Source of the DNA: Rhizophagus irregularis
Taxonomy: Eukaryota
Direction of reading: 5' to 3'
NCBI RefSeq assembly: GCF_026210795.1
Contig: NC_089430.1
Span: 372,001 to 436,000 of the forward strand
DNA length: 64,000 bases
Position numbers and translations under genes: made by a program. How positions within the stretch are numbered: the first letter of the stretch is position 1; each line of letters opens with the position of its first letter. Below, piece after piece: positions 3,174 to 54,300 of this stretch. The notes below the pieces were generated by a model that was given only the letters and a program-made list of their open reading frames with translations, searched no databases and was not told where the DNA came from.

Positions 3174-3544
3174 GTGGAGGCATATAATATTAGTATTATT
3201 ATTTTTATTTTCTTATAAATAAAGTCAAATATTTAAATATCAAAATACGTTCATCCAACCGATAAACATTAGCTAGTTGAAAATTATGAAGTATTACAAC
3301 ATCATACTAACGATGTTTTCTATTGATATAAGTGTAATCACTGATCACAATAGTGCTATGATAATACTATTTAAATAAGGCCTATATTATAAAATTTTAT
3401 AAATGTCATAAATATTGTGAAATCATACTTAACTTTGCATTTACATTATAGGATTTTATACATCTTAAATCATTTTTTATTTTATACTAATAACTAGAAA
3501 TATACATGGACCATCCACCAGCGTGAAGGTAGAAGTAATATAAA

Positions 3545-10670: not shown

Positions 10671-10700
10671 CTAGTTTATGTGCGGCGACTTTGTCGCCGC
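10671..10700 (-). mobile_element. Helitron-like 3' terminus
   Basis: Perfect hairpin GCGGCGAC-3nt-GTCGCCGC (10682-10700), then CTAG 7 nt further on the minus strand. The next base is A rather than the usual T. Confidence 0.45.
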
Positions 10701-24000: not shown

Positions 24001-27000
24001 TTCTGGATCTTGGGTTATTCCATAAACTTTATAGGAACCTATAGTCTACAAATAAAATAGATGTATTGAATATAATAACAAAAAAATATTTTATTAAATA
24101 ATAGTACTAATTATACCTTATTTAATTCGCTAACTTTTAAAACATTTAAACTTTTCAAAATCAAATAAATATATTTGTCTTTTCTTTTCCAATTTTGATT
24201 TTCATCATTCCATTCATTTATATATCCATCAATCCAACTTGCTCTATATATTTTATCTTTTACAATGCATTTAATATAAAATTTATCATAGGGTATCCAT
24301 TCTAATGCTTCTGATAATTGATAGGTTTCATGCGATGATAGTTGAGAATTTTGAATAAATTCATCAATAATATTATTACCACTAGTCCAATTTCCAAAAT
24401 TTAATTGAAAGTATATTGAATTACATACATCATTACATTTTTCGCATGTTAAAACCACCATGTAATTTTCTGTTTCTGAATCTTGGGTTATTCCATAAAC
24501 ATTATCGAATCCTATAATCTGCAACTAAAATAAATAACATTGAATATATTAGTAAACATTAAATTTTATAAATTACATTGGGTGAAAAATAATTTTAGTA
24601 CCTTATTCATTTTTGATTCAATAGATTTTGGATTTGTACTTAAATTTTTTAAAATTACAAGCATATTTTGATGCCTTCTTTCCCAATTTTGACCTTCATT
24701 ATCCCATTGGTTTATATATCCATCAATCCAATTTGCTCTATATACTTTATTTCCGCTTGTTGAAATACATTTCATGTCATAAAATTTGTTATAAGGTATC
24801 CATTCTAATGATTTTGATAATTGATAGGTTTTATGTGATGACAGTTGAGAATCTTGAATAAATTTATCAATAATATTATTACCACTAGTCCAATTTCCAA
24901 AATTTAATTGAAAGTATATTGCATTACATATGTCATTACATTTTTTACATGTTAAAACCACCATGTAATTTTCTGTTTCTGGATCTTGGGTTATTCCATA
25001 AACTTTATAGCAACCCATAGTCTAAAATGAAATGGATATATTAAATATACTAACAATAATCAAAATATTCAAAATATTTTAATAAATGAATGATAATATT
25101 AATTATTACCTTATTTAATTCACTAACTTTTAAAATATGATCTAAACTTTTCAAAATCATAGATATATTTTGGCCTTTTCTTTCCCAATTTTGATTTGCA
25201 TAGTCCCATTTATTTATATATCCATCAATCCAATTTGCTCTATATACTTTATTACCACTTTTTGAAATACATTTAATATCATAAAATTTGTTATAAGGTA
25301 TCCATTCTAATGCTTTTGATAATTGATAAATTTTATGTGATGATAGTTGAGAATTTTGAATAAATTTATCAATAATATTACTACCACTAGTCCAATTTCC
25401 AAAATTTAATTGAAAGTATATTGCATTACATACATCATTACATTTTTCACATGTTAAAACCACCATGTAATTTTCTGTTTCTGAATCTTGGGTTATCCCA
25501 TAAACATTATTAAATCCTATAATCTGCAACTAAAATAAATAACATTGAATATATTAGTAAATATTAAATTTTATAAATTACATTAGGGGAAAAATAATTT
25601 TAGTACCTTATTCATTTTTGATTCAATAGATTTTGGATTTGTACTTAAATTTTTTAAAATTACAAGCATATTTTGATGCCTTCTTTCCCAATTTTGACCT
25701 TCATTATCCCATTGGTTTATATATCCATCAATCCAATTTGCTCTATATACTTTATTTCCGCTTGTTGAAATACATTTCATGTCATAAAATTTGTTATAAG
25801 GTATCCATTCTAATGATTTTGATAATTGATAGGTTTTATGTGATGACAGTTGAGAATCTTGAATAAATTTATCAATAATATTACTACCACTAGTCCAATT
25901 TCCAAAATTTAATTGAAAGTATATTGCATTACATACATCATTACATTTTTCACATGTTAAAACCACCATGTAATTTTCTGTTTCTGAATCTTGGGTTATC
26001 CCATAAACATTATTAAATCCTATAATCTGCAACTAAAATAAATAACATTGAATATATTAGTAAATATTAAATTTTATAAATTACATTAGGGGAAAAATAA
26101 TTTTAGTACCTTATTCATTTTTGATTCAATAGATTTTGGATTTGTACTTAAATTTTTTAAAATTACAAGCATATTTTGATGCCTTCTTTCCCAATTTTGA
26201 CCTTCATTATCCCATTGGTTTATATATCCATCAATCCAATTTGCTCTATATACTTTATTACTACTTTTAGAAATACATTTAATATCATCAAATTTGTTAT
26301 AAGGTATCCATTCTAATGCTTTTGATAATTGATAGGTTTTATGTGATGATAGTTGAGAATCTTGAATAAATTTATCAATAATATTACTACCACTAGTCCA
26401 ATTTCCAAAATTTAATTGAAAGTATATTGCATTACATACATCATTACATTTTTCACATGATGTTAAAACCACCATGTAATTTTCTGTTTCTGAATCTCGG
26501 GTTATTCCATAAACTTTATAGCAACCTATAGTCTAAAATGAAATAGATACGTTTGAATATGTTAATAAAAATTAAAAATCCTATTAAATAATAATATTAA
26601 TTATACCTTATTTGTAAGTGTTAATTCACTAATATTTGAAATATTTAAACTTTTTAAAATTACAACCATATTTTGATGTTTTCTTTTCCAATGTTGATTT
26701 TCAACATTCCATTTATTTATATATCCATCAATCCAACTTGCTCTATATATTTTATCTTTTACAATGCACTTATTAATATAAAATTTATTATAGGGTATCC
26801 ATTCTAACACATTGTATGATACAAAATAATTATGTTCTAATAGTTGAGTATCTTGGATAAATTTATCAACATAATTATTACCGCTTGTCCAATTTTTGAA
26901 ATTTTGTTGAAAATGTATTGCATTACATATATAACCACATTCTTCACATATATCTTTCTGAACTATTATATAATTTTTTGTATCTGGATTTTGAGTTATC

Positions 27001-27972
27001 CCTATTGTTAACTATAAGTATAATAAATTAATAAGAGGTATACTGTTTAAAAAATGATAAAATAACTTGCCTTGTTTACAAATTCTGATATATTATATTT
27101 TGGATCACTTAAATTTTTTAGAATTACAAACATATTTTGATGCCTTCTTTCCCATTGACCTTCATTATCCCATTGGTTTATATATCCATCAATCCAATTT
27201 GCTCTATATACTTTATTACTATTTTTTGCAATACATTTAATATCATAAAATTTGTTATAAGGTATCCATTCTAATGCTTTTGATAATTGATAGTTTTTAT
27301 GTGACAATAGTTGAGAATTTTGAATAAATTCATCAATAATATTATTACCACTAGTCCAATTTCCAAAATTTAGTTGAAAATGTATTGCATTACATATATT
27401 ATTACATTTTTCACATGTTAAAACCACCATGTAATTTTCTGTTTCTAAAATTTGGGTTATTCCATAAACTTTATAGCAGCTGATAATCTACAAATGAAAT
27501 AGATATGTTTGAATATGATATTAACAAAAATAAAAATCTTATTAAATAATAGTATCAATTATACCTTATTTGTAAGTGTTAATTCACTAATATTTGAAAT
27601 ATTTAAACTTTTTAAAATTACAACCATATTTTGATGTTTTCTTTCCCAATTTTGATTTTTATCATCCCATTTATTTATGCACCCATCAATCCAATTTGCT
27701 TTATATACTTTGTTTTTTTCAATGTACTTAATATTATGAAATCTATCATAAGGTATCCATTCTAGTGCTTTTTCTGCATCGCTATGAGCTAATAGTTGAG
27801 TATTTTGGATAAATTTATCAATATCATCATTACCACTAGTCCAGTTTTTAAAATTTTGCTTAGACCGTTTTTCAAAACAAATTTTATAACATTTTATAAA
27901 TATCTTATCTGACTTGTATAGAATAATGATGAGTATGAAGAAGAAGGCACCAATAATTTGAATGAAACCCAT
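21052..27972 (-). CDS. Giant TKL kinase (about 1,980 aa) with an N-terminal hydrophobic anchor and 12 exon-encoded Cys-motif/N-lobe modules
   Basis: Exons 27972-27565, 27487-27071, 27011-26607, 26532-26110, 26026-25607, 25523-25110, 25021-24602, 24518-24117, 24045-23644, 23573-23154, 23068-22613, 22539-22114 (all multiples of 3, phase 0), then 22045-21163 (HRDLHIGN, DMG, SPE) and 21095-21052. Confidence 0.85.
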
Positions 27973-30295: not shown

Positions 30296-32266
30296 AACTA
30301 TCAACGTAAAAATCAATACAGAATTCTGAATTTTCAAGGTTTGCAACTAGGGATGGAAATATCATGGAATCGGTTAAAAATGAGTCGACTCGAGTCGATT
30401 CTGGAACTGAACTTAAATTTAAAAGATTCTGGATCTCTTGGGCTTAAAACTACTTTTAACCATAAAAACCGTTCTGAGAACCGAGTCATCAGACGATCAC
30501 ACACCATCATTTGAAGGCCAATCAAATTTTTCTTATTGGTCATCATCACATATACGTTGACTTAAATATATTGAAGTTCTGTATATTGAAGTTTTGTATA
30601 TTTCATCTATAAACAAATACAAGCACAAGTATAATATACTGTATATATTACAATTTCAGAATTTACAACTTTATGAACATATACAGACTGTACTATGTAT
30701 GTATATATATCATTATAAAAGGAACGTTTATTAAATTTTCTGTTAAAAAAAAAATAATGAAATCCAGTTAATGAACTAGCTATCGCTATACTGTTTAATC
30801 TAACTCACTCAGAATTAGAATTTTACTTACAAAAAAACTACTCTTTATCTAACCATTTAGTTTCAGAAATTAACCTTTTTGACTAATCTAAAAATATAAT
30901 TTTTTGAACATAATAAATACCTGGTAAACAGTATTTAGTGAAAAAAGAGTTAACTTATTAGTTGCACCAAAGTTTCATGAAATTTCTGTTAAAAAAAATA
31001 AAATAAATAAAAACTCGTATTATTGCAAAATTTATTTCTATACGTGTTAAAATTTTTTTTTTTTAAAAAAAAAGATAACTATTAACTAATTACTCGGGTT
31101 CTGACTCCGAGTCAAAAAAATTCTTAACTCATTTTACTTCATCCATGTATTACATACGTAGTAACTGAAACTGTGTAAATAAGAAAAAAAAATATTTTTA
31201 GCCATATTACTGATTACACAGCAATTTAATGTGTTTTCATTGATACCACGTCGTAACGATCAATTTCTTACAATCAAAATTATAAAAGTATTATCTAAAT
31301 TCTTAATAATTTTTTTGCCAATTTGTATAAAGTTTTTATAATAAAATTCTGGTGTTATATCCTTATGAGAAATCTATTATGTAAATTTTTTAAAGATTCA
31401 CAATAAATTACAATCATAGAATCATTTATATTGAAGAACAAGTTTTCATAATGCAAGTTGCTCTTTAACTTATTTATAAGCGATATGATTATTTCATATT
31501 TCTCTAAAAAATTAATAGATTTATAAGGTAAGTTCTATTGCATAAATAATGAAAAAAAATTTTTTTGCGTTTTTTTAACAAAAAGTAATTTTATAAGATC
31601 GAAGATGCCATTGTTAAATTATGGGTTTATATTTTTTTTTTTTAGATAATCGTCTAATGAATTATTTATTAGCGTTAGATAATGTATGGAAATTATTAGA
31701 AATTAAACAAACTTTTTGGAAAATTATGCTAGGTAATTAACGTTAATTAAGAAATTTTATAGATTTTCATTTGTTTTATTTGAATCTTTTTAACTTAATA
31801 ATATTATAATATAATTTATTTAACGTTATATTTTAAAACTTTATATTTTTTTTCCAATATTTATTATGAAAAATTACAAATAAAAGTTTGATTACATTAA
31901 ATTTTGATTCTTTATTTGACTTGTTTACGCGGATTGTGCATAATTTTTATAAAATTTCAAATTTTACGTTCATGTATCTTTTTCTCTTCAACTGTAATCA
32001 TAACTGCAAGTTCTTGATTTATCATTCTATTAATAAATGTCATCAAACTAGAACTAATTTTTTTTACATTGTATTTTAAGAATATAATCAATAAATTTAG
32101 TATTTACTAGCTGTAGCCTGTTGCGTTGCAACAGGATTAATTTATTTCATTAACGTTAAGTATTTGTAAATATTTTTTTTAGTGCTTTACCGTGTGTCTA
32201 CATTATGGTATTTGATTTGAATTATCTCGTTAACCAGAACGTGTACCAATTTATCAGAGTTGATAG

Positions 32267-32494: not shown

Positions 32495-32949
32495 GTTGAT
32501 AGTTTGATCGAAGGACATTAAATTCTGTTATATCAGTCATTATACTATTAATATTTTAAAGAAACTTGTTGTTGACTCGCAATTGAGAATTAATAAAGTC
32601 CGATGTGTGGTTTGCGTCATTGATCTGGTTGTTGAAAATATCAATAAAGATGATCAATATCGAGATCATGCATGTTTTACATGTTTTATCTCAGTAAATA
32701 CAATAATAGTTTAATAGTTTAATTGAAACTCAATAATTAATTTATCTATCATTCTATCCATCCATCTTTTTCTTCATAATGACTCATCCAAAGCTTGCCA
32801 TAAAGAAGTAGATTGCAATCACAATACTGGTTATTATTTTTTTTTTTGTATTTGCTTTAAAAAGATATAAATATACCTCAAAAGCTCTCTCAAACTTCAA
32901 ACTTCTTTTTAAAAATATACTTACTTATTTACTTCTTTTCAATATTTAT

Positions 32950-33550
32950 AACACTTCTCTCAAAACTTTTGAAATTTTCGCTAAAAAAAAAGTATCATGG
33001 TATAAAGTATTTTTATTTATTCTATTTACTTGTTTTTAATATTTACGATCACCTCTCTCAAAACTTTTGAAATTTTCGCTAAAAAAAAGTATCATGGTAT
33101 AAAGTATTTTTTATTTATTCTATTTACTTGTTTTTAATATTTACGATCACCTCTCTCAATACTTTTGATATTTTCGCTAAAAAAAAAAAGTATCATGATA
33201 TAAAGTGTCTTTTAGTTTATTATATTTACTTCCTTTTAATATTTACGATCACCTCTCCTAAAATTTTGATATTTTTGCTAAAAAACAAAATTATCATGAT
33301 ATAAAGTGTCTTTTAGTTTATTCTTATTTACTTCTTTTTAATATTTACGATCGGGAAGGGAAAGAGCAAGGAAATACACAAACATACACCACCTACGCAC
33401 AAACCCACACACAAACCTACCGACACACAACAACCCACATACCTAAAGGAAGACGTAAAGAAAAGGGTTTAAGACCTTTACTAAAATTTTTGATATTTTC
33501 GCTAAAAAAAATAAGTATCATGGTATAAAGTGTTTTCTAGTTTATTTTTT
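32950..33550. repeat. About 100-bp tandem repeat (about 5 copies) inside the Helitron, interrupted by a CA-rich insert at ~33353-33480
   Basis: Unit CACCTCTCTCAAAACTTTTGAAATTTTCGCTAAAAAAAAGTATCATGGTATAAAGT..AATATTTACGAT. Confidence 0.85.
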
Positions 33551-35621: not shown

Positions 35622-36014
35622 TGTTACGCAATTCTTGCACACATGATTTCTGATGTTATATGATGATCCGATGGAAATTCAGTATGTTTTTTTTTTTTTT
35701 AAATAAAGGAAAAATTTATTATAAAAGAAAAATATACAAAATTGAACTAATCTAGTTTAAATACAAGATCGAATAAAAACTAATAAAAAACTTGGTGACT
35801 TAAGAATATGTGTTCAAAAGAACTATCTACCATCATGCCTGCCCAAATACTTTCACATGCATAAAATATCCTACCGGTATTCGTACATCCTTTGGTGACT
35901 AGCTCAAAGATATTTCTCTATAAAAAAAATAAAACTAAAACATAAAACAATTCTAAAACCTAAAAAAATCTAGTATATCCTAAATTAATTTACGTAAAAC
36001 ATCTAAAATTTCCG

Positions 36015-37492
36015 CTAAGACCTTAGATCATGATGTTTTATGGGACTTATCTTTCTTCTGCTTTTTATGCTTCTCAGATTTTGTTTCTTGTGGTTTCTTT
36101 TTAGAATTCTTAGAATTCTTTTGACTTTTATCAGTCTGTCAACTTCCTGAAGTTCTTTTCTGATCCTTGTTGGTATTATTGCCAAATGACCTTGTTCATT
36201 GCATTGGAGGATCATGTTGATTCCAAGACAGGTGCTGTTGCTCCCAATCATATTGATTATCTAATGCTGTATGCATATCAACCCACTTTTCAAAATAACC
36301 AATAAGCTTACAATCCCCTTTTGCTGTTTGTACAATTTTAAAGCTTTTCAAACCATTAATCACAGTAAGGAATGAATGTGGGTGATGGTCTTTCCATAAG
36401 GTTGCTATTGTCATTGAATCTGGAATTTTTTTGAATTGTAGCTTGAAACTTCTCACGTTGTTTTCTTTCTTTGAGTATTCACCTTGCTGGAAACTACTGA
36501 ACCGGTATCCCCTAAATCCATAGTCCAAACCGGACCATCATTACCTTCGAACTGGGCTAGACGAAAGGAAGTTAATTCTATCTTCAAATGAACTGTCTGG
36601 TATTTCTTTTGTTGTTTCATTTGTAACGAGATAGTCTTTCCCCACAGAGTTAACTGTTACAGAATTTCTTCTGGTGTCAAGGATACTGGAACATCATAAA
36701 CCAATATATCTCTAATCCGTGATGTACCATCATCATCTGGTTTATGACCTGTAATAACTTGTTGAATAATATTTTTATTTGACTTCTTTTTTTATTCGAA
36801 GATTTTGTCAAATTAGATGAATTGTCAACTGGTTGTTTTACAAGCTGCGGCTGAGGCATTACATCCAGTTCAGAAATAGGTTGTACTGTTGAGATTTCCA
36901 TATCAATATGTTGATCAACATGTGATTGTGATCCAGAGGCATCTGCAATCGACTGATTTATAATTACATCTTGATCAACACCTAATTGATCATCATCATC
37001 ATCAGTATTTCTCATTATTCTACTAGTACTTACATCTGTAAGCACATCAGAATCGGAATCTTCAGATTGGTGTTTTTTCTTCTTATTTTTTTTAGTCTTC
37101 TTGCCCTTTTTAGACTTTTCCTCATGCTTTCTCACTAAATGTAACATTTGCTTTCTTCCTTCACTGTGCTCTTTTATTCCAGAGTATACTGTGTTAAAAC
37201 TCTGAGAAGCAGAGTACATAGCAACATGTAAAAAAAAAGAAAAACTTTGAGGTGTCATTTTATAGCGAGTGGCTCTATTCTCCCAACTGAGTATTTCTTC
37301 ATTTGATAGACCAAAATTTGCTTTTAAAATATTATTTTGAACTTCTACTTGAGGTCCAGAAAAAAATGAAGTAAAAAGACTTTCACAATATTGAAAATAA
37401 TGTGTATATGTAAAATGTAAAAATCTATGTTCTTTGCCAGTTCCATAAGTAAACCTATTTTTGGCTATTTGTATATTTCTACTATCTTCCAT
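36015..37492 (-). pseudogene. Frameshifted LINE ORF1-like (RRM-type) protein
   Basis: Starts MEDSRNIQIAKNRF..EHRFLHF; Lys-rich tract; other frames give IRDILVYDVP..LTLWGKTISL and KSFKIVQTAKG..KLIGYFEKW. Stops and frameshifts present; no RT ORF downstream. Confidence 0.6.
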
Positions 37493-37503
37493 ATTAATAA
37501 AAA

Positions 37504-37538
37504 CTAGAAATTGCGTTTTGCGGGGGACTTCGTCCCCC
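37504..37538 (-). mobile_element. Helitron/Helentron-type 3' terminus (element extends rightwards, 5' end uncertain)
   Basis: Perfect hairpin GGGGGAC-3nt-GTCCCCC (37522-37538), then CTAG|TTTT on the minus strand (37504-37507). Confidence 0.6.
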
Positions 37539-37899
37539 ATTGTTTAATTTTGTGTATTGAAATGTCAATATCAAATCAAGTTGCATTTTACTGGCGTTTA
37601 TAAAATGCTCTAACAGAAAAAATTTAATTTTTTTTTTTTTTGATTCAAATTATTTAATGATAAGTGACAACTAACATTATCATATTTATTAAAAGCATTT
37701 ATTAAAAGTATTTACAAAAAAAAAATAATAATTTACTGTATGCTAATAATTAAAATTCCACCTTTACTAAAAATTTACATGTTGTTAATGGTTTGGATAT
37801 TGGTTCCAGTTGGTTCGATTCCAACAGACAACAAATAAAGATAAGAAATTCCATAGAAGCTAAAGTCCTATAAAAATCGTGCATTATTTATAAAAGATC

Positions 37900-40800
37900 T
37901 ACTATTGGGATTCAGGTGCCGATTTCCCTACAAAAAGAAAAAGTAACATTAAAAATAATAAAAATAAAGTTTTTTTTAAAGTTTTGAATCAAAACTTACT
38001 TATGGTATCCAAATCGGAGTCAATTTCCTTAAAAAGAAAATTCTGGAGCATTCTTTGAATCTCACAGATCCAAAGATATCACAGCTGAAACTTACAAAAT
38101 AAAGAAAGAGTCAAATTAAAAAACAATTTTTATTAAGAAGTTTTGAAGTATTTGCTTCAAAACTTACCATTTCAATGCCCAAAGATATCACAGCCGATAC
38201 CTACAAAATAAAAAAATAAATAAAATTATAAATTTTTCTGAAAGTTTGAAAAAAACGAAACTTTGAAACTTACTGACCCAATGTTTAAGGAGATATTGCA
38301 GTCAAAACCTACAGAATAAAAGAAAATTTTAAAAAATAATTTTTATTAAAAAAGTTTTGAAAAGAAAATGAAACTTACCGATCCAAAGCCCAATGAGATG
38401 TCGCAGCCATTACCTATAAAATAAAATAAAATAAAATAAAATAAAAAATCTTTTTTAAAGTTTTAAAAAGAAAGCAAAACTTCAATACTCACCTATCCAA
38501 AGCCCAAGGATATTACAACTGATAACTACAAAATAAAAAAACAAATAAATAAAATTAAAAAAAATTTTTAAAGTTTTGAAAAGAAAACAAAACTTTGAAA
38601 TTTACCTTTAAATCAAACGCATAAGAACTGAAAGCCGAAATCTACAAAAATAGAAGAAAAAAAAATTAAAATAAATTAATTTATCTTAAAAAAGTTTCAG
38701 CTCTTTTGCTCTGAAACTCACCTATATATCAAACACCCAGAAACAAAAAGCCGAAACCTACAAAATAGAAGAAAAAAAAAATTAAATAAATAATTTATTT
38801 TAAAAAAAGTTTTGGTTCTTTCACTCCAAAACTCACCTATATATCAAACGTCCAAGAACTGAAAGCTGAAACCTACAAAATAAAAAAAAAACAAGTAAAT
38901 TAAAAAAAATATTTTTTTAAAAAAGTTTCAAAGTTTTCACTTCAAAACTCACCAATATCAAATACCCAAGAACTGAAAGCCGAAATCTACAAAATAGAAG
39001 AAAAAAAAATCAAAATCAATTTATTTTAATAAAAATTTCAGCTCTTTCACTCCGATACTCACCTATATATCTAAACCAAAAGCTGAAATCTACAAAATAA
39101 AAAAAAGTAAGTAAATTAAAAAACTTTTTTAAAAAAACTTTTGAAGTTTTTGCTTTGAAACTCACTGAAAGCCGAAATCTACAAAATAGAAGAAAAAAAA
39201 ATTAAAATAATTTATTTTAAAAAAAGTTTCAGCTCGTTCGCTTTGAAACTTACTTATATAATAAACTTCCAAGAACCGAAAGCCGAAACCTACAAAATAG
39301 AAGAAAAAAAAAATTAAAATTAATTTATTTTAATAAAAATTTTGGCTCTTTCGCTCCAAAACTCACCTATATATCAAACATCCAAGAACTGAAAGCTGAA
39401 ATCTACAAAATAGAAGAAAAAAAAAATTAAAATAAATTAATTTATTTTAAAAAAAGTTTTGGCTTTTTCGCTTCGAAACTCACCAATAATAAACGTCCAA
39501 GAACCAAAAGTCGAAACCTACAAAATAAAAAAAATAAGTAGATTAAAAAATTTTTTTTTTAAAAAATTTCAAAGGTTTCACTTTGAAACTCACCTATATC
39601 AAACACCCAAAAACTGATAGCTGAAATCTACAAAATAGAAGAAAAAAAATCAAAATAAATAATTTATTTTAAAAAAAGTTTTGGCTCTTTCGTTCTGAAA
39701 CTCACCTATATATTTAACACCAGGAACCAAAAGCTGAAATCTACAAAATAGAAGAAAAAAAAAATTAAAAATTAATTTATTTTAATAAAAATTTTGGCTC
39801 TTTCGCTCCAAAACTCACCTATATATCAAACATCCAAGAACCGAAAGCTGAAATCTACAAAATAGAAGAAAAAAAAATTAAAATAAATTAATTTATTTTA
39901 AAAAAAGTTTTGGCTTTTTCACTTCGAAACTCACTAATAACAAACGTCCAAGAACCAAAAGTCGAAACCTACAAAATAAAAAAAAATAAGTAAATTAAAA
40001 AATTTTTTTTTAAAAAAATTTCAAAGGTTTCGCTTCAAAACTCACCAATATCAAACGCCCAAAAACTGATAGCCAAAATCTACAAAATAGAAGAAAAAAA
40101 AATCAAAATAAATAATTTATTTTTAAAAAGTTTTGAAGGTTTCGCTTCAAAACTCACCCCAAGAACTGATAGCCGAAATCTACAAAATAGAAGAAAAAAA
40201 AAATTAAAATAAATAATTTATTTTAAAATAGTTTTGGCTCTTTCACTCCGAAACTCACCTATATATTCAACACCAGGAACTGAAAGCCGAACCTACAAAA
40301 TAGAAGAAAAAAAAAATCAAAATAAATAATTTATTTTAAAAAAGTTTTGGTTCTTTTGCTTCGAAACTCACCTATATATTCAACACCTAAGAACCAAAAG
40401 CCAAAAATAGAAGAAAAAAATTTGATTTTTTTTTTAAAAAAAAGCTTTGATTCTTTCACTCTGAAACTCATCTATATACTTAACACCCAAGAACCAAAAG
40501 CCAAGATCTACAAAATAGAGAAAATAGAGGGAAAAAAAAATTAAAAAAAAATTTTTTTTTTTAAAAAAAGGTTCAATTCTTTCGTTCTAAAACTCACCTA
40601 TATACTCAAAGTTCAAAAACTAAAAGCTGAACCTACAAAATAAATAAAAAATATAAGTAAATTAAAAAAAATTTTTTTAAGTTCCGAAGTCAAAACTTAC
40701 CCATCTAACGTCCAAGAACTAGAAGCCGAAACCTACAAAGTAAAAGAAAAAAAAATTAAATAATTTTTTAAAAAAATTTCATAGTTATCATCTATATATT

Positions 40801-41170
40801 CAATGCTTAGGAACCGGAAGCCAAAACAATTAAAAATAATTTTTTTTTGAAGCTTTCACCTCAAAACTCACCCATATATCCAACGCGGAGCCAAAATCTA
40901 CAAAATAGAAGAAAAAAAAATTTAAAAAAAAATATTTTTTTTTAAAAGTTTCAAATCGAAACTTACCTATTGGAGATCTGGTATCCAAATCGGAACCAAT
41001 TTCTCTACAAAAATAAAGAAAAACATCATTTTTTTTTAAAAGTTTCAAATTTTGAAACTTATTGAGATTCCAATATCCAGTTGATTTCTTTACAAAAAAA
41101 GAAAAAAACGTTAATGTTTTTATTTTTAAAAAGTTTATATAATTTTTATTAGAGTCAAATACCCTACAAA
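37900..41170 (-). repeat. Tandem array of about 30 units of ~115 bp, each shaped as a micro-exon plus GT-AG intron
   Basis: On the minus strand each unit has a GTGAGT/GTAAGT donor, a ~80-nt T-rich intron ending TTTTGTAG, and a mostly 34-36-nt exon (e.g. 38722-38757, 38837-38872, 38953-38986). Confidence 0.85.
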
Positions 41171-41789
41171 AAAATAAAAAAATTAAAAAATTAATTTTTT
41201 CTAGAAATTTCTCTAATAAAAAATACTAAGTTTCGTAACAAAGTAAACTATTACAAAACTCACCTTTCCACCTATCCAAACTTGTCTGAACATAACAAAA
41301 TAAAAGGAAATATTAATAAAAATGTTTCCTTCCAAGAAAAAATTTTTTTTTTTTTTTAGTAAAACGAAAAAAAAGGGAATTAAATAATGATAAGTATTGT
41401 AATTGGATAATGATAATCAAAAAAAATGATGTTTCTTTCTAAAAAAAGAAAGAAAAATGATTTTTTTTAAAAAAATCCAAGATCTATTTATGACGCAATA
41501 TTTTTTTTATCCAACCAATTTTTTTTTTACTGCAAAAAAAAAGAGATGTAACACAATATTTTGGGGTTTTTTTTTTAGCTTAGAAAAAAAAAATATTCGT
41601 AGCTTTATTTCTTTGAAGATCATCTAAATCAAATTTGATGTGAAATCCTATTATTTGATGACTAAATTAAACATGCAATGAAAGTGGCACAGGAATGCTT
41701 AATTTGTAATTTTATTCTAATGATATCAAAAGAAGCAATTTGGTAAAAGCAATATTTTTTGCTATTTAGCGTCTATAGCTATAGCTATA

Positions 41790-41874
41790 TAGCAATAGCA
41801 ATAGCAATAGCAATAGCAATAGCAATAGCAATAGCAATTGCTATTGCTATATAGCTATAAAACATAGCTATATA
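41790..41874. repeat. (TAGCAA)8 microsatellite with an adjacent perfect 11-bp-stem hairpin
   Basis: TAGCAA x8 at 41790-41837; TATATAGCTAT-AAAAC-ATAGCTATATA at 41848-41874. Confidence 0.85.
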
Positions 41875-42100
41875 AAATTGAACAATTAAAGTTCACGTTG
41901 TGCATTTCCGAAACTATGAAAAAATGTATGAAGATCGCATAACAAATTCCATATTGAGCGAAAAAGTGAATAAATATGGAAGATGATCGTCAGAAATTTA
42001 TCATCCAAAAGCATACTATCGCTAACAAGAGTAAAAAAAAATTTTTATTTTTTACTGCAGAATTATTATGTTTTTAAGAAATTGAGGAAGAAGTTTGGGA

Positions 42101-42502
42101 TATACATGTTGCCGAAATATTTCAGCTATTTCGCCCACGTGACAAACTCTTCAAAGCAAGATCATCTGATTTCATAGATTTGGCTGAAATTAGGCTTCAA
42201 ATAGGTTAATCTGGGTTTGAAGAACTTATGAAAGAACTTTTGAGGAATTTCGACCAACTTACATAATTTTGGCAGGGCTCTGGAATTTCGGACAACATAT
42301 ATTTAATATATGGCCAAAACTTTAAAATCCGATTCAAAATTATTGCAGATTATGCTGAAATTTTCTGAAGTCTGCCAAAAGTTGCTGCAGATCTGGCCCA
42401 AATTATCTGAGGTTTAAAAAATTTTATTGATATATCTACAAGTAGCTATATTTTGGTGCTGAAATGTGGCCGAAATTGAAAAAAGTTTCGGCAACATGTA
42501 TA
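42101..42502. mobile_element. hAT-like MITE
   Basis: 17-bp perfect TIR TATACATGTTGCCGAAA; 8-bp TSD GTTTGGGA (42093-42100 / 42503-42510). Confidence 0.88.
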
Positions 42503-42515
42503 GTTTGGGAATTCA

Positions 42516-42635
42516 CACAGGTCAAAAAGTGAAAAATCAGGCACCAATCGGTCACCAATCAGGTAGCTGATTGGTGCCTGATTGGTGACCGATTGGTGTC
42601 TGATTGATGCCTGATTTTTCACTTTTCAACCTGTA
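42516..42635. mobile_element. 120-bp fold-back MITE with 3-bp TSD
   Basis: About 34-bp TIR CACAGGTCAAAAAGTGAAAAATCAGGCACCAATC, internal CCAATC/GATTGG repeats, TSD TCA (42513-42515 / 42636-42638). Confidence 0.75.
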
Positions 42636-44926
42636 TCAGTATGTTTGTGTACATGTCAATTTCCGATGTTACGAGATGATTTATGCCAATGTATTTGTGT
42701 ATATCAGTTAACTATATTAAAGATATTGATTTTATATGATAAATTTACTTATATATTGATTTTATATTTATTTTAATTTATTCAATTTATTTATCTACTA
42801 TTATTTATTTTCTTTATTTGTATTATTTATATGTATACAATTTTATTAGGATTTATTAGAAGATAATTGTGTGAGAATTAGTTCAATAGTATTAATTGTC
42901 CAAAATTATCATTTGTGTTCTATTTAAAAGTGGCTTACAATAAAAATTATTGCTATTGTAATATTGTGATGAAACATTGACGATTAGACATCTATAGATT
43001 AGATTTTGCCTTTGATTGTTAGAAAAAGAGATGGCAGTAAGATATAAATATGCCTCTACCAACTCCATAATAGAGGGAGATCTATATAGTTGTTCTTGAG
43101 AATTTTCCCTATCACCTTTATTCGTTTTATTGTAAACCGAAAGTGTCCTTTTATTAAATAAAATCATTACGTTTTGGTTATTTTACATTGTTTCTATATA
43201 TTCCACTTAAGATTTATTTTATATATATCGCGTATTGCTATTAATTGTATTTTATAGTTGTTTACCTTGACGATTCTTAACAAACAATACCGGAAATACC
43301 AGGATAGGTAGTATTGAGTAAGAATCTTGTTGGTATTCATGTAGTTATATGATATAAGTCATCCACTATACGTCCCTTAATTACCGCCATTATTCAGTAA
43401 CAGTAACATTTACCTAAATTATTTTCAAAATTTTATTAAATTATAAATCATTTTATAGGTAAGTTATCAAACAAAAATGAAAATAAGTCAATAGGAACAT
43501 TCATCTGCACCAAATAAAAATATAAAAGGTGTAAACACAATTGTGAAAACTCATATTCTAACACTAGACTTCTTATGTTGAATAAATGCAACAAATTTAA
43601 GCCTAATATTAACTATCAATGCAATTTTATAATTAGGATATTATTTTTTTTTGTTGATATCATTGTATTTTGTTCAACACTAATTATAGAGTATATGTAA
43701 TTTTTTTTTACATAAATAAAAATTAGTTTGTAATTGAACAAATTAAATATAAGATTTGAAAATATTATTAACTGTTAATTTTATGGTGATTAAAATTAAG
43801 AAATAAATTAATAATAAATATAAATACACTAGTAATTATCAATTTTTTTATAAACCTATTATTGGAGAATTATTACTAATAATAATAGCTTCAATAGTGG
43901 ATTTATTGCTAACATTTTCATTCAAAATAATAAAATTTTCTTATTATGAGGTATTTTGTATATCAAATTTATTATACACACTTAATTACTTAATAACAGA
44001 TAAACATGGTGTCTCTTTATTAAATATTAGGTTATGAAAATACTTATCAAGATGGAATGCAAAAAATTGATACTGTATGTACAGGCAAAAAAAAAAATAT
44101 GTAGTTTGAGAATTAAGTTATTTAAATTGATATATTAAAATATCAAATAAAAGTAGAAATTTTTTATAAATTCATGACTAATTAGATGAAATTAGGTCAA
44201 AACTCAAAACGAATCTATAACCAAGGTGATTTCTAATGATATAAAAAAACGTTATTATTAATAAGGAGCTAAAAGTATTAAAAATTTCACTATCTTTTAA
44301 AATTTAAATAGTAAAATTCGCCTAACTTTAGGTGATTATAATTTTATTATTGATTTTAAAGTTTTTACTTTTGGAAAATATTTAAAAGTAGGGTTGTGAA
44401 ACGGAACAATTCTTAATCCAATTCCATTTCCATCATAATTTGAACAATTCTATCAGGATTACTTGTTCAATAAAACCATTACAAAGATGTGAATCTGAAT
44501 GAAGAGAAAGACTACATCAGGAAAAACTGATTTGCCACACCCTGAAAATACACATTAATTGCATATTTAATATATGTAATGTATTTTCCATACAATATAT
44601 TGTAAAAAAATTTGTTAATTTTTATAGTACAAAGAATTATACATATAATATTGTTTTATATTGCATAAATTTTGAGAAATTTAACCATTTGTGCAATATT
44701 GAATACCCTGAAAATTTTGTGATGTAAATTGTTTTGAACTTAATAAGATTTCCCATATATCCAAAGATACTATGGTTCCAAAAAAAAGGTTATTAATCAA
44801 AGATTTAGCTTAAATGTCACACTTTTTTTATAGCTATCAATATAATTGGAAAGTTACTTTTTTTAAACAACATATTCCTTTTCTATTTGCTTATCCACAA
44901 TATTTTAACATTAATAACTAAAAGTA

Positions 44927-46215
44927 CAGTCACGTCCGAAAGTGACGCCCGATTTAAAATTAATGCCAAAAATGGCAAAACTTTATTGATTTTCATTAAA
45001 ATTCACATAAAAAATAATTACTAAAAATGGTTAATAATGTGTTGGCCCTCCCCTTGCTTCTAGTACTGCATTTATTCTTTGTGGCATTGAAGCAACAACC
45101 TCTTCAAAAATGGAGCAATCCAAATTTTCCCATTCTTCACTTAGTGCAACTTTAAGTTCATCCACAGTTCTTGGAAAGACTTTACAACTCTGGATATTGT
45201 CCTTTAACTGCTTCCAGATGTTTTCTATTGGATTTAGATCAGGAGAATTTGCCGGCCAATCAATAACCACAATTTTATTCTTCTTCAACCAATCCTTGGT
45301 TATTTTCGCGGTATGTATGGGTGCATTATCCTGTTGAAAAATTGCAGCCCTTCCTGTTAACTCATGAACTGTATGCTGAAATGGATACAGATATGAATTT
45401 AGGATTCTAATGTAAGTATTTGAATTGATTTTTTTATTTCCTTCTTTATTTTCATCACAAAAAATTAATGGCCCTTTTATCCCTCCTGCAAAACAGCCAC
45501 AAACCATGACTGATTTTTGACCACTTTTAAAGATAGGTGTCAAGCATTCAGTGTTAAACCTTTCCCCTGTGTGTCTCCAAACTCTTATTTGTCGTGACTG
45601 CTTGCCAATCTCAACACTTGATTCATCTGAGAAAATAACTTGTGCCCAATCATAAGCTGTTTTTTCTTTATATTTCTCACACCAACTAATACGAGCTAAT
45701 GCATGCTTTTCTGAGATAAAGGGTTTTTTTGCAGCAACATGGGAATAAATTCCAACACTATGTAATGCTCTTTTAGCAGTTGTAAGGCTGCAATTTAAAT
45801 CTAATGTATTAATGACTTCATGTAAAGGTTCGCATCGATCTTGTGTAACTTTGTTTATGAGTGCATTTTTCTCATTATTATTGAGAGCAGGTGGACACCC
45901 CGATCTAGGTAAATTTTCAGTTTTCCCTGTCTTCTTGTATCTGTCAATAATTCTTCTTATTGTGGTGGGGTCACGACCCATTTTTCTTGCTATTTGTGCA
46001 GGGTTAAAATTCTCCATATATGCTAGTATTTTTCCTTTATCTTGAGAAGTTAACTCAGTTCTATGTGACATTATTTTTTTAACTTTGCAACGCGTTTATT
46101 AGGTTATGAAATTGTGAGAAAAACATTTAAAAATAAAAAAAAGGGGGTATAAATAATGTAAATTTTGTGTATCATAACACCGTACAAAATCGGGCGTCAC
46201 TTTCGGACCTGACTG
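44927..46215 (-). mobile_element. Full-length Tc1/mariner transposon (1,289 bp)
   Basis: 29-bp TIR CAGTCA[C/G]GTCCGAAAGTGACGCCCGATTT (1 mismatch), TA target duplication, and an empty paralogous site at ~59500-59520. Confidence 0.95.
45031..46071 (-). CDS. Tc1-family DD34E transposase, 346 aa
   Basis: N-terminal HTH; IFSDES, FQQDNAPIH, WPANSPDLNPIENIW; 34 residues between the second D and the E. Confidence 0.95.
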   Translation of the reverse strand: MSHRTELTSQDKGKILAYMENFNPAQIARKMGRDPTTIRRIIDRYKKTGKTENLPRSGCPPALNNNEKNALINKVTQDRCEPLHEVINTLDLNCSLTTAKRALHSVGIYSHVAAKKPFISEKHALARISWCEKYKEKTAYDWAQVIFSDESSVEIGKQSRQIRVWRHTGERFNTECLTPIFKSGQKSVMVCGCFAGGIKGPLIFCDENKEGNKKINSNTYIRILNSYLYPFQHTVHELTGRAAIFQQDNAPIHTAKITKDWLKKNKIVVIDWPANSPDLNPIENIWKQLKDNIQSCKVFPRTVDELKVALSEEWENLDCSIFEEVVASMPQRINAVLEARGGPTHY

Positions 46216-48020
46216 TACATATAGTTATATGTAAAAAAATATACTATTATTTTATTGCACCTTCTGAATTTTTTATTTCCTAAAAAAAGATAAAAAGTAT
46301 TATGGCAGCGAAAGTTATTAAATTTGTACAAATATTATAGTTAACTATGATTATTTGTTTGTTCATTAAATAGAATACTGACAGGTGAAGTCAAATCTTT
46401 GGATTGATATTAACTGCAAAATCAATTATCAATTTAATCTTATTACCTTTATTTTATAATCATTCTTTACAATTATAAAACTGTGAAGTATAAATCTACT
46501 TTAATCCTGTACATTAGACTACCACTTTAATGACCCTTTGAGATCCGAAATGATCTTCAACTATAGGGCAACTGGTGTAACAGAGGCTATATCACAAGGA
46601 TAATTAATTTAGTTATCAGAATTTACAATTACAAAACTATTATTAGAGAAATGTAGAACTATGTAAAGAAATTTATTTTAGAAATTTCGTTACAATAAAA
46701 TGGGAAATTTTTATTTTATTGGTCCTTTAATATCTTCTTTTTTTTTAACTTTAACCTTTATTAATATTGTATATTTATGCAATATAATTTATACATCCGT
46801 TAAGTAAAGTGTCTGTAAAATATATATATACCTTCCTTGCTAAAAAAAAATGTTAGTATACCACGAAAATCTAGCAGCAAATCTCTTAAGAGAAGATGTT
46901 AAGGGTACACCATAGGGGTATGTCAATAACGAATTTTTTGGCGAAACTAAACTCGACCCTGCTTTATCATCCCGTGACTAATTTCTCTAAATTTGTTTAC
47001 TCTATTCAACAGTTATTTCTTTTAATTTTTCCTAACGTAAACGTTACATTGTTCGAATTTGTTTGCTTATTTGAACGAAATATTTGCTTATTCGTTATCA
47101 GAGTCGTCTCTTCTTCCCTGCATTTTTTGTTTTCGTTCAATTTTTCTACAACCTTATCTTTTCCTTTGTTAATTATTTCTTCTTTGCAGCTGATCTTGGT
47201 AATTCAAGCACTAAATTCATTATTTAATTGGTTAAAATTTCCTACTACTTCCTTGGTTGGCATTGGAGAAACCACTGATATCTTGAGACTCGATAAAGCA
47301 TCTTCAAATGTTCATCCTCTAAAGGAGGCAGTGCATTTCGGTCTATTGTCTTTCAATATCTTGGCTTTTTAAAACTTCCATCTTTGCCAATGATTTCGTC
47401 TTGTTCTTTAATCTGCAAGCCTTTACTCAGGTCTTCATTCATGGCAGATTCGTATGTGGAGTTAAACAAATCTTGTTCATTATTAAAATACATTAACATA
47501 TATTTATTTTGTTAATTTTAATGATTTTAGCGAAATGGCCTCCATGATTTCGTCAGTATAATTTGCAATTCTATTCCATAAATTTGAAAAGCGGACATAA
47601 TAATTTGTGAATATAATAAAGTTTCCTAGTTGTAATAATCAAAAAGTACTGAAAATATATTAGTATGTCACAAATTAAGTGTGAAAAATATATCGTCAAC
47701 TTCTATAAATCAACTTAATTTTTTGCTCTTTTTAAAGATATCTATTAAACTTACAGTAAAATTTTCAATTATTAATTTTTAAGCTTTATTAGTAATATCC
47801 TTTTGATTTATCCTCAATATATTCACAACCTGTTCTAAATGATCATTATATATAGTATAAGTATAAATATTTAAGTTACTATAATAAAATAAAAATGATG
47901 AAAAATATCTAAAAACCTCTTCATTTGGGTAAGTATATTACTATATAATTCTTATTTTTTCTGTTAATAGAATTGTAAAAGTGTAACCTAAAATCTAATA
48001 TTTATAGCTCAAGAAAGCTA

Positions 48021-48090: not shown

Positions 48091-48315
48091 TTCAAGTGAG
48101 CCAAACGATTTTATTTTGATCTGCATTGTACAGTATGACAAATTTATTGAGTAAGTGTTATGCTTAAAGAAAAATGGCGTAATTATTATCACATGATTTC
48201 CAATTCGATTTAAATTTTGTGATAATCATCGCATATTTGTGTAATTGTTTTGACACCTTCTTTAATTAACACCGATTATTGTTTGTTTTTAAAAAAACAA
48301 AAAAAATCCTAAATC

Positions 48316-51300
48316 ATGTCATCTCAAAATGATATTATATGTGAAAGTTGTAATAAAATATATACAGATATTGATCATGAATGGTGTAAACCATGTGTAA
48401 TAAATAACTTAAAAAAAAATATCACGAACTGGACTAGTGGAAATGAAAATATTAATAATTTTATTCGAAAAATGCAATTAAAAATTAAAAAATATGATGA
48501 TATAATTGTTGAATGGATACCTTACAACCAATTTAATAATGTTAAACAAACAAACAAAGATGGTCTTGCTACAGCAATATGGAAGGATGGTTTATTAAAA
48601 TATGATGAAAAAGAAAGGAAACGTAAAAGATTATTTAATATAGAAGTTTCTTTAAAATGCTTGAACAATTCACAATCAAATGAGGTATGAAACTTCTATT
48701 TTTTTTGTAGTTTATTCTTAAAGTGCTTTTATTATAACAACCTTTTATATTAATAGGATGAGACATATTCCATTAAAGTAAATGAATATGATGATATTTT
48801 CAAAATATATGGAATATCCCAAAATCCAGATACAAAAAATTATATTATAGTACTTAATAATAGTTATTGCAAAGAATGTGGTGAAATATATACAAATGTA
48901 TGGGGAAAATGGTGTAAACCATGTGGAATAAATAATTTAAAACAAAATTTTACAAACTGGACTAGTGGGAATAAAAAAATTGACGAATTCATCCAAGAAA
49001 TGCAATTGTTAATTGAAAGTTATAATGATATAATTGTTGAATGGATACCTTATAACCAATTCAATAATGTTAAAAAAATAGGTAAAGATGGCTTTGATAT
49101 AGCAATATGGAAGAATGGTTCATTAAAATACAATTATGAAAAACTAAAATATGAAAGAGAACCTAATAAAGAAGTCACTTTAAAATGCTTGAATAATTCT
49201 CAAAATGTTATCAGTAACTTGCTAAATGAGGTATGAAACTTCTAATTTTTGTAATTTAATTCTTAAAAATACTTTATTTTAACAACTTTTATATTTAACA
49301 GGCTAAAGTATATTCCTATTATGAATATAATATTCCCAAAATATATGGAATATCCCAAAATCCAGGTACAAAAAATTATATTATAGTACTTAATAATAGT
49401 TATTGCAAAGAATGTGGTGAAATATATACAAATGTATGTGGAAAATGGTGTAAACCATGTAGAATAAATAATTTAAACCAAAATTTTACAAACTGCTGGA
49501 CTAGTGGGAATGAAAAAATTGATGAATTCATCCAAGAAATGCAATTGAAATTTGAAATATATGATGATATAATTGTTGAATGGATACCTTATAACCAATT
49601 CAATAATGTTAAAAAAATAGGTAAAGATGGCTTTGCTACAGCAATATGGAAGAATGGTTCATTAAAATACAATTATGAAGAAATAAAATATGAAAGAAAA
49701 CCTAATAAAGAAGTCACTTTAAAATGCTTGAATAATTCTCAAAATGTCATTAGTGGCTTGCTAAATGAGGTATAAAACTTCTAATTTTTGTAATTTAATT
49801 CTTAAAAATACTTTATTATAACAACTTTTATATTTAACAGGCTAAAGCATATTCCTAGTGCCTCGACCCGTATCCGGATCAATCCGGATTGATCCGGATT
49901 TTTTTTTTTTTCGGATATCCGGATTTTCACGGTTTTCATCCGGATTATAAACCGGATGAAAAATATCCGGTTTGACCCGGAATCCGGATGAAATTTTTAT
50001 TATTTTTTTTTTATTAATAATAATTTTGCTGATCCATAAAGATCTATATCTAAATGATATTATGGCTAATTATTTTTGCGCCTAATACCAATTTTTTTAT
50101 TAAAATTTATTAAATTTATATTTGTTATATTAAACTTTTTAATACAGTAAGTTTAAGAAGATTTTTCAATTATAATTTATTTATTGAAGTTTGTATCAGA
50201 TTTGTTTATTTAAATTTATACATTAACAAATAACAAATAATTTTAGATTTCACATTCAAACGTTCAAAAGAAAAAAAACTTTATATTATTTTTGTTAAAA
50301 CAAAATAATAATTATTGTTTTAAATGAAAAATTGTTCAATATTATAAATTTATATAATTATAACGACTTTTTTAAAAAATTAAAACTAGTGTTATATAAT
50401 TTGATTCAAATGATTCTTTAATTTTTGAAAGAAGAAACAAATCCTTAAAAAATTGCCTTACTAACCCAACACATCTATTTATAGTAATCTTTAGCTGTAT
50501 ATAAAAATATCTTGTTTAAAATTTCATAATTAGTTAATTTACAAAGAAATGTTAAACAATAGTCTGAGACAATGCTGAAATAATATGAAATTGTTTTAAA
50601 GAAAAGTATTTAATGAAATTGGAATTATGTAAATTTCGTGGTCTTGGATAATTTTGGCCAAATTTGTAATTCTGGCCGAAATTAAAATCACGTGACACCG
50701 GAAAAATAGTTTAGCCACCGGGCAAAAAATTTTTTATCGGCTGGCATGAAAATTTAATGTTACACAATTTGTAATTCTGGCCGGCGTTATGAATTCTGGC
50801 CAGAATTATTGCCGATCATTTGTAAATCCAATCCGGTTTCCGGTTTCTATCCGGATTATCTGATCCGGATTCAAAATCCGGGTCAATCCGGATATAATCC
50901 GGATTTTTTTTTTGTGTAATCCGGATGACGGTTTTCATCCGGGTCGAAGCACTACATATTCCATTAAAGTAAATGAATGTAATATTCCTAAAATATATGG
51001 AATATCCCAAAATCCAGATACAAATGATTATATTATAGTATTTAATAATAATAGTTGTTGCAAAGAATGTGGTGAAACATATACAGATATATGTAGAAAA
51101 TGGTGTAAACCATGTAGAATAAATAATTTAAAACAAAATTTTACAAACTGGACTAGTGGGAATAAAAAAATTGACGAATTCATCCAAGAAATGCAATTGT
51201 TAATTGAAAGTCATAATGATATAATTGTTGAATGGATACCTTATAACCAATTCAATAATGTTAAAAAAATAGGTAAAGATGGCTTTGCTACAGCAATATA

Positions 51301-54300
51301 GAAGAATGGTTCATTAAAATACAATTATGAAAAAATAAAATATGAAAGAGAACCTAATAAAGAAGTCACTTTAAAATGCTTGAATAATTCTCAAAATGTT
51401 ATCAGTAACTTGCTAAATGAGGTATAAAACTTCTAATTTTTGTAATTTAATTCTTAAAAATACTTTATTATAACAACTTTTATATTTAACAGGCTAAAGT
51501 ATATTCCTATTATGAATATAATATTCTTAAAACATATGGAATATCCCAAAATCCAGATACAAATGATTATATTATAGTACTTAATAATAGTTATTGTGAA
51601 GAATGTGGTAAAATATATACAGATATAGAAGCTAAATGGTGTAAACCATGTCAAATAAATAATTTAAAACAAAATTTTACAAACTGGACTAGTGGAAATG
51701 AAAAAATTGATGATTTCATTCAAGAAATGCAATTGAAAATTGAAAGTTATGATGATATAATTGTTGAATGGATACCTTATAACCAATTTAATACTATTAA
51801 AGAAATAAGCTTTTCTAAAGCATATTTAGCAATATGGAAGAATGGTTCATTAGAATATAATAAAGAAATAAATTATGAAAGAGAACCTGATAAAGAAGTC
51901 ACTTTAAAATGCTTGAATAATTCTCAAAATGTCATTAGTGGCTTGCTAAATGAGGTATAAAACTTCTAATTTTTGTAATTTAATCCTTAAAAATACTTTA
52001 TTATAACAACTTTTATATTTAACAGGCTAAAGCATATTCCATTAAAGTAAATGAATGTAATATTCCTAAAATATATGGAATATCCCAAAATCCAGATACA
52101 AAAAATTATATTATAGTACTTAATAATAGTTGTTGCAAAGAATGTGGTGAAATATATACAAATGTATGGGGAAAATGGTGTGAACCATGTGGAATAAATA
52201 ATTTAAAACAAAATTTTACAAACTGGACTAGTGGGAATAAAAAAATTGACGAATTCATCCAAGAAATGCAATTGTTAATTGAAAGTCATAATGATATAAT
52301 TGTTGAATGGATACCTTATAACCAATTCAATAATGTTAAAAAAATAGGTAAAGATGGCTTTGATATAGCAATATGGAAGAATGGTTCATTAAAATACAAT
52401 TATGAAAAACTAAAATATGAAAGAGAACCTAATAAAGAAGTCACTTTAAAATGCTTGAATAATTCTCAAAATGTTATCAGTAACTTGCTAAATGAGGTAT
52501 GAAACTTCTAATTTTTGTAATTTAATTCTTAAAAATACTTTATTTTAACAACTTTTATATTTAACAGGCTAAAGTATATTCCTATTATGAATATAATATT
52601 CCCAAAATATATGGAATATCCCAAAATCCAGATACAAATGATTATATTATAGTATTTAATAATAATAGTTGTTGCAAAGAATGTGGTGAAATATATACAG
52701 ATATATGTAGAAAATGGTGTGAACCATGTAGAATAAATAATTTAAAACAAAATTTTACAAACTGGACTAGTGGGAATAAAAAAATTGACGAATTCATCCA
52801 AGAAATGCAATTGTTAATTGAAAGTCATAATGATATAATTGTTGAATGGATACCTTATAACCAATTCAATAATGTTAAAAAAATAGGTAAAGATGGCTTT
52901 GATATAGCAATATGGAAGAATGGTTCATTAGAATACAATTATGAAAAAATAAAATATGAAAGAGAACCTAATAAAGAAGTCACTTTAAAATGCTTGAATA
53001 ATTCTCAAAATGTTATCAGTAACTTGCTAAATAAGGTATGAAACTTCTAATTTTTGTAATTTAATCCTTTAAAATACTTTATTATAACAACTTTTATATT
53101 TAACAGGCTAAAGCATATTCCATTAAAGTAAATGAATGTAATATTCCGAAAATATATGGAATATCCCAAAATCCAGATACAAATGATTATATTATAGTAT
53201 TTAATAATAATAGTTTTTGCAAAGAATGTGGTGAAATATATACAGATATATGGAGAAAATGGTGTAAACCATGTCAAATAAATAATTTGAAACAAAATTT
53301 TACAAACTGGACTAGTGGAAATAAAATAATTGATGAATTCATTCAAGAAACGCAATTGAAAATTAAAAGTCATAATGATATAATTGTTGAATGGATACCT
53401 TATAACCAATTTAATACTATTAAAGAAATAAGCTTTTCTAAAGCATATTTAGCAATATGGAAGAATGGGAAGAATGGTTCATTAGAATATAATGATTATG
53501 AAAGAGAACCTGATAAGGAAGTCACTTTAAAATGCTTGAATAATTCTCAAAATGTCATTAATGACTTGCTAAATGAGGTATAAAACTTTTAATTTTTGTA
53601 ATTTAATTCTATCTTAAAAATACATTATTATAACAACTTTTATATTTAACAGGCTAAGACATATTCCATTAAAGTAGATGAATGCAATATTCCTAAAATA
53701 TATGGGATATCCCAAAATTCAGATACAAATGATTATATCATAGTACTTAATAATAGTTATTGTAAAGAATGTGGTAAAATATATACAGATATAGGAGCTA
53801 AATGGTGTAAACCATGTCAAATTAATGGTTTAAAACAAAATTTTGTAAATTGGACTAGTGGAAATGAAAAAATTAACAATTTTATTCAAAAAATGCAATT
53901 AAAAATCAACAATTATAATGATATAATTGTTGAATGGATACCATATTACCAGCTTATTAGTATTAAAGAAATAGGTAAAGGTGGATTTGCTACAGTCTAT
54001 TTAGCAGTATGGAAAGATGGTCCATTAAATTATAATAAAAGGGAATACAAAAGGGTAACTAGTAATAAAGAAGTTGCTTTAAAATGCTTACATAATTCAC
54101 AAAATATTACTAATGAATTTTTAAATGAGGTATGAAATTTATTTGTTTAGGCTTCATTAAACACTTCTGAATAATGATTGTTTTTACTTTTTGATAGGTT
54201 AATGCATACTCTATTAGTATTAATAATGGAATTCTCAAAATATTTGGTATATCTCAAAATCCAGATACAAATAACTATATTATTGTACTTGAATATGTAG

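Follow-up and report, generated by a model that had tools for sequence, protein, structure and literature searches.

[quoted passage not shown] On its minus strand, from 41163 to 38000, lies an array of 31 module positions, each ~113 bp in a parse of the sequence, in which very short exons alternate with short introns. The kinase-type genes at 21152–27972 (minus strand) and 48313–55067 (plus strand) are themselves built of tandem ~470–545-bp exon-plus-intron modules with long open exons; they show the same kind of duplication as the array, but are coding. At ~49860–50960, a CCGGAT-rich insertion interrupts the 539-bp kinase-repeat spacing (spacing 1652). Other features of the window include a Tc1/mariner element (44900–46242), whose inverted arms measure 56 nt and whose DDE_3 ORF encodes 354 aa, and a 98-bp tandem repeat of 4.3 copies with 90% matches (32926–33352).

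Architecture of the exon–intron array

TRF returns periods of 113–115 bp for the array together with a 452-bp higher-order repeat of four units, and the modules are spaced ~100–116 bp apart, in agreement with the roughly 30 units of ~115 bp described in an earlier note on this DNA. The canonical module, found at 24 of the 31 positions, consists of a pyrimidine tract, a TAG acceptor, an exon of 13–38 nt and a GT donor that is nearly always GTRAGT. In the other seven modules the acceptor, the donor or both are lost or variant, and decayed modules are found at both array ends. Both splice sites are lost in the module at 40822 (minus strand), and one intron in the modules at 40507–40405 (minus strand) lacks both donor and acceptor; the exon–intron pattern stays consistent in each case. 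The exon parse places the 36-nt exon cited earlier at 38872–38837 and confirms that exon length is variable. Exon-internal deletions, which give rise to exons of 13, 22 and 27 nt, spare both splice sites. The introns are mostly 68–90 nt long, with two longer gaps that contain decayed exons, and 12 introns of host genes in the window, picked by motif, measure 68–81 nt. GC content is 37% in the exons and 19% in the introns. The youngest part of the array is a core at 39164–40400 (minus strand) made up of the 452-bp four-unit repeat, in which matching units are 92–99% identical.

The splice motifs are strongly biased to one strand. Over 3400 nt, the minus strand contains 27 GTRAGT motifs and the plus strand one, and 500 dinucleotide shuffles give a mean of 1.3 and a maximum of 5. 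Similarly, 28 acceptor-like sites are observed vs a shuffle mean of 12.9 (maximum 24), bearing out the earlier description of donor and acceptor signals on the minus strand. A TTRAY branch-like motif lies 23–45 nt upstream of 23 of 27 acceptors, but in DNA this rich in AT it is not counted as evidence. Based on the parse, TRF and these motif counts, there is virtually no doubt that the module array is a real structure.

Upstream of the array, the 3′ part of a putative first exon extends from the ATG used by most gene models to a donor at 41263 (41264–41293, minus strand), and 52 of 75 models join this exon to an acceptor at 41087, which are predictions. The first intron begins with a 15-bp stem-loop (41227–41262, minus strand; z −4.1, with 1 of 200 shuffles equally stable). 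Two strong palindromic repeat hairpins composed of 6-bp and 11-bp units also lie upstream, at 41775–41860 and 42517–42634; they match Rfam miRNAs with scores far under the gathering score.

Transcripts, dispersal and the Helitron-type end

Sequencing runs were compared with positions 36900–37948 only. Run X20 is poly(A) RNA, X23 and X6 are taken to be RNA by guess, and X16 is DNA-like; the raw-read runs X20 and X23 come from different studies. One of four contigs from run X6 (contig 12; 299 nt, depth 50) aligns to 37791–37927, and its 162-nt loose end begins precisely at the acceptor. Thirty letters of this loose end match 38000–38029 with one mismatch, while the next-best site has seven mismatches. 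The contig joins the last micro-exon to the terminal acceptor, and the 72 nt that it skips are exactly the last intron (37928–37999, minus strand), which runs from GT to AG. In these two parts the contig has 4 differences from the window in 137 letters and 1 in 30, so it belongs to a different copy or strain, and the junction could conceivably derive from a processed retrocopy. The last intron is removed in this one likely RNA-derived sequence, from one copy. The claim of a heavily spliced RNA thus holds for the last intron in one contig, and we consider it quite probable that splicing extends to further introns.

The raw reads are consistent with reads stopping at the acceptor. Depth at 37920 is 7 (X20) and 15 (X23), and mean depth in the bin 37915–37948 is 3.4 and 6.4, compared with expectations of 2.7 and 5.7 if reads stop at the acceptor and 7 and 15 if they continue. 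The DNA-like run X16 is flat over the acceptor (depth 315 to 336). No loose end at 37927 is present among those listed for X20 and X23, and the raw reads may derive from other copies or strains. Expression is low, with a depth of 7–18 in ~1.7 Gb read. At the other end of the terminal exon (37670–37927, minus strand), RNA depth stops in the bin 37670–37704, beside two AATAAA motifs that start at 37703 and 37690 (37685–37703, minus strand), and is 0 over 37530–37669 in both raw runs; X20 reads flagged as cut fall at 37614–37652, within this zero-depth zone. AAUAAA is the main poly(A) signal of R. irregularis (PMC10234402), and the end of RNA depth beside these motifs points to a likely poly(A) site within the element. 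The terminal exon also contains ~65 nt (37772–37839) from a different repeat that is far more abundant; summed contig depth in this fragment reaches ~3000–3300 vs ~315–600 in three upstream bins, and many loose ends occur. On the plus strand, the fragment has a motif resembling a tRNA T-arm; a tRNA or SINE origin was rejected as neither ARAGORN nor Rfam returned a match.

The element ends in features of a Helitron. A 17-nt GC hairpin with a 7-bp stem (37538–37522) is followed after 14 nt by CTAG (37507–37504), a CTRR end, with a T directly after it (37504–37538 in all, minus strand), in keeping with the Helitron-type 3′ end recognized in the earlier note. In PMC4289320, the Helitron 3′ end is defined as a 16–20-nt hairpin ~12 nt before CTRR. 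Two X16 contigs share this end and differ upstream of it, and the summed X16 depth is 593 in the bin containing the end, up from 273, a figure that is not a copy number. Helitrons start with TC and insert between A and T; for such a 5′ end, the single copy examined offers 14 ATC candidates in 42100–41300. No long ORF is present in the element, and none of the 21 window ORFs scanned (of 46) matches Rep or helicase. As neither a 5′ end nor an empty site was found, the element is termed Helitron-like, and its mobility is probably of the Helitron type. Further hairpin, CTAG and T combinations occur at ~32105–32140 (minus strand), seen by eye and not returned by the scan, and near 10674 (plus strand), found by the scan.

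The array is present in multiple copies. Models of it occur at six OCT59 loci (OCT59_001007/8, OCT59_007073/4, OCT59_011549, OCT59_019123, OCT59_024320 and OCT59_024666), which, judged from protein models only, lie on six contigs of one annotation that differ in length; the array is consequently a dispersed repeat. The 73-aa model OCT59_011549 spells the first exons of the array in the window. The OCT59 prefix, absent from the main text of PMC10234402, presumably marks the annotation of that paper. As described in PMC10234402, the annotation was made using BRAKER with RNA-seq and long-read refinement, so the model junctions may be partly read-supported; they are taken here as predictions. Relatives in protein searches are from R. 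irregularis (19 of 19, 28 of 28 and 10 of 11 matches). P0090 (1940 aa) is an unrelated repeat protein and was excluded from the relatives. P0087 (CAB4424652.1) is a diverged sister of the three-frame repeat peptide, suggesting further families of such arrays in R. irregularis. Scans with the array pattern gave 0 matches in viral DNA, and 11 metagenome and 6 GTDB single matches, all without splice context, were judged to be chance. The six loci and the Helitron-type 3′ end support the earlier suggestion of a TE-borne sequence, which is multi-copy and probably carried by a transposable element.

The ORF that adjoins the element (36677–37492, minus strand, starting at 37492) is multicopy and frameshifted here, with an A-tract near 35690 after it, and is identical to R. 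irregularis OCT59_011548 over 210 aa. A downstream ORF does exist as the earlier note proposed, but its designation as a LINE ORF1 reflects layout only: no Pfam, NCBIfam or PDB match that would reveal an RRM, coiled-coil or zinc-knuckle domain was found, and the structure model has a pLDDT of 34. A link between this ORF and the array is not supported: RNA depth is zero between them, and an ORF1-like gene adjoins the array at one of the six array loci seen. Conversely, among six ORF1-like OCT59 identifiers seen, which are not an exhaustive set, the one that adjoins an array identifier is the neighbor in the window. The ORF1-like gene is likely an incidental neighbor, a probable insertion site without read-through. 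A paralog of this gene, ~90–95% alike over 36900–37390, shows good expression in X20 and X23, and its reads show an 85-nt skip at 37099–37185.

Given these results, we lean toward reading the array as the likely passenger of a non-autonomous Helitron-like element, the RNA of which is likely spliced throughout, internally polyadenylated and non-coding.

Selection, intron structure and coding potential

Conservation of the splice signals was probed by counting parsimony changes on a tree that covered every one of the 31 modules, even the decayed ones; base-matched non-CpG columns served as the null. Across seven splice columns there are 9 changes vs 23.9 expected (p = 2e-4) and across the three splice Gs 6 vs 11.8 (p = 0.017), while GT and AG alone show 8 vs 13.9 (p = 0.07); these values apply to units that are related, in an alignment anchored near the motifs, with donor positions +4 to +6 overlapping the stem-loop. 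The excess conservation put forward earlier as a check is consequently real for the extended splice signals and marginal for the dinucleotides. CpG-type columns change more than the others (7.6 vs 3.1 changes), so the array was likely methylated at some time. The observed/expected CpG ratio is 1.01 in the array, compared with 0.38–0.50 in the neighboring ORF, the Tc1 element and a kinase gene.

These data bear on the possibility that the array is a neutral relic, in which a fragment of a once-spliced gene was captured, tandemly expanded and dispersed, with splicing as a by-product and conservation reflecting older selection and context. Low expression, the decay of modules at both ends, the CpG-type decay, the marginal conservation of GT and AG and the finding that the named relatives are all from R. 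irregularis would fit such a history. It is less easily reconciled with the outer units, in which the exons are only 63–78% alike and the splice columns are nonetheless conserved, or with the use of a poly(A) signal and a spliced junction in some copy. Overall, a neutral origin is rather unlikely.

Most introns start with a stem in which positions +3 to +13 are paired to +20 to +30, placing a stem-loop over the donor. Folding at z < −1 is observed for 18 of 31 array donors vs 7 of 35 control GTRAGT sites elsewhere. Folding of the first 40 nt only gives stems of ~6–11 bp, and of 15 bp in intron 1. For the 20 of 31 introns that share a register, pairing is seen in 78.5% of cells and the covariation signal is weak (14 of 500 shuffles). 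The base pair that varies corresponds to a palindromic CG, which decays to TG or CA, and because this decay explains the pair changes, covariation was rejected as proof of an RNA structure. Rfam returned 14 matches at E ≤ 5 for 36500–43000, all of them outside the array and below the gathering score. The introns thus differ from those of snoRNA or miRNA host genes, which contain a known small RNA. Mirtrons, in which a hairpin of pre-miRNA length starts at the donor, form another class of comparison for introns that open with a stem.

The stem-loops raise the alternative that masking of the donor from +3 to +13 hinders U1 pairing, so that ~30 introns stall spliceosomes and siRNA is produced against the element. 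The excess of folded donors over GTRAGT sites elsewhere is in line with this idea. R. irregularis Helitrons yield small RNA (PMC8647823), and the SCANR mechanism of Cryptococcus offers a precedent (PMC5851062). The array resembles the SCANR case in that transposon-related, intron-bearing transcripts occur in an RNAi-competent fungus; it differs in that SCANR is a host pathway and the array an element. Furthermore, the donors fit a strong consensus, the single tested intron is removed and there is little intron coverage. The covariation, explained by CpG decay, adds little, and the CpGs are retained in the array. An RNAi trigger is therefore improbable.

The coding potential of the array is poor. 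Only 9 of the 24 canonical exons are divisible by 3, as expected by chance, and 15 shift the frame; the joined exons contain 14, 10 and 13 stops in the three frames, with a longest open run of 50 codons. At least 75 R. irregularis protein models of the array are present in the database. Across 75 of these, the three repeat frames occur 74, 123 and 120 times, and 50 of the 75 use two or three of them. None of the three array models scanned matches a Pfam family. A leader frame of 67–77 aa is common to many models, and 56 share the 5′ part at 92% identity, which could merely reflect recent copying. In a crude test on the 73-aa model P0046, no hydrophobic N-terminus was found (within the initial 30 aa, hydropathy over 11-aa stretches peaks at −0.35). 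The array RNA is very probably non-coding. While the earlier observation that frame is not strictly kept stands, its suggestion of a peptide-repeat gene does not survive the frame-shifting exons, the stops and the mixing of frames among models.

The same results speak to a resemblance with the micro-exon genes (MEGs) of Schistosoma, which would have the array encode a variable hydrophobic peptide through exon skipping. MEGs share with the array a long run of exons of ~36 nt or less and many predicted isoforms, but they have symmetric exons and their protein products are mostly secreted (PMC4015677). The array exons are of micro-exon size, most often close to 36 nt, one frame stays open in 6 of 8 listed 36-nt exons, and the number of database models and their common 5′ part could be taken in favor of such a gene. 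In contrast to MEGs, the exons are not symmetric within one open frame, no Pfam family or signal peptide was found in the models examined, and the sequence is a mobile repeat, making this reading very improbable. Least probable is a simple minisatellite in which a palindrome in the DNA would be the conserved part and the splice motifs would be incidental: head-to-tail units with a higher-order repeat are typical of satellites, inverted repeats of the form AGTTT...AAACT are found at the start of most introns and quasi-palindromes can persist without RNA function, but the exact GT–AG removal, the position of the acceptor and pyrimidine tract outside the palindrome and the strict strand asymmetry argue against it.

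Proposed origin and significance

Returning to the favored reading, a spliced, non-coding passenger of a Helitron-like element, the array probably arose from a founding module of a ~35-nt exon and a ~78-nt intron of host size that was duplicated head to tail. As such duplication carries the donor and acceptor along, every added unit brings a spliceable intron. The exons would then have drifted freely in length and frame while the splice signals were retained; the most recent duplication would have involved a four-unit block, and the complete unit would later have been copied to other chromosomes. It is a tentative possibility that the mRNA-like processing, rather than a protein, benefits the element. 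Splicing and an internal poly(A) site could make the transcript resemble that of a host gene and end it before the flanking DNA, leading to less silencing. More doubtful still is a stronger version, in which the array serves as an intron factory with ~30 micro-introns per copy, donor-masking stem-loops and selection on splicing itself, the putative outcome being an RNA disguised as host mRNA that escapes silencing (or titrates the spliceosome) in a fungus that has strong RNAi as well as DNA methylation.

Parts of this arrangement are found in other systems. Tandem repeats within the Drosophila Helitron DINE-TR1 reportedly seed satellites, and the window array is similar in being a head-to-tail array of ~100–150-bp units inside a Helitron-type element; the units here differ in carrying a donor and acceptor under apparent constraint, with one intron seen to be removed. 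Non-coding host genes of repeated exon–intron units, namely the SNORD115/116 host, C19MC and GAS5, likewise have short frameless exons and many introns in tandem exon-plus-intron units, whereas the introns of the array are only ~78 nt long, with stems of 8–11 bp and without an Rfam RNA. The non-autonomous HELPO1 Helitrons of Pleurotus (PMC4289320) are alike in having dispersed copies that end in a 3′ hairpin and CTRR, lack a helicase and carry a transcribed passenger whose origin is unknown. In contrast to HELPO1, the passenger here is a tandem run of ~30 micro-exon-plus-intron modules without a reading frame, and the 5′ end is not located. No account of such an element was found in a literature search that excluded subscription journals and repeat libraries, and the main text of two papers on R. 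irregularis transposable elements does not mention splicing or introns. The array is an unusual variant of a Helitron-type passenger or satellite, for which direct support for splicing is partial.

At the level of annotation, the at least 75 R. irregularis "proteins" in the database are likely artefacts of one repeat. The array additionally illustrates wholesale intron creation by satellite-type duplication in the absence of coding constraint. Intact splice sites, hairpins and CpG state vary among its copies and units, and for R. irregularis methylome data exist alongside data on RNA and small RNA (PMC8647823 and PMC10234402). With its many copies, the array family consequently offers a natural experiment on the effect of splicing on transposon RNA, which may be shielded from silencing or made a target of RNAi.
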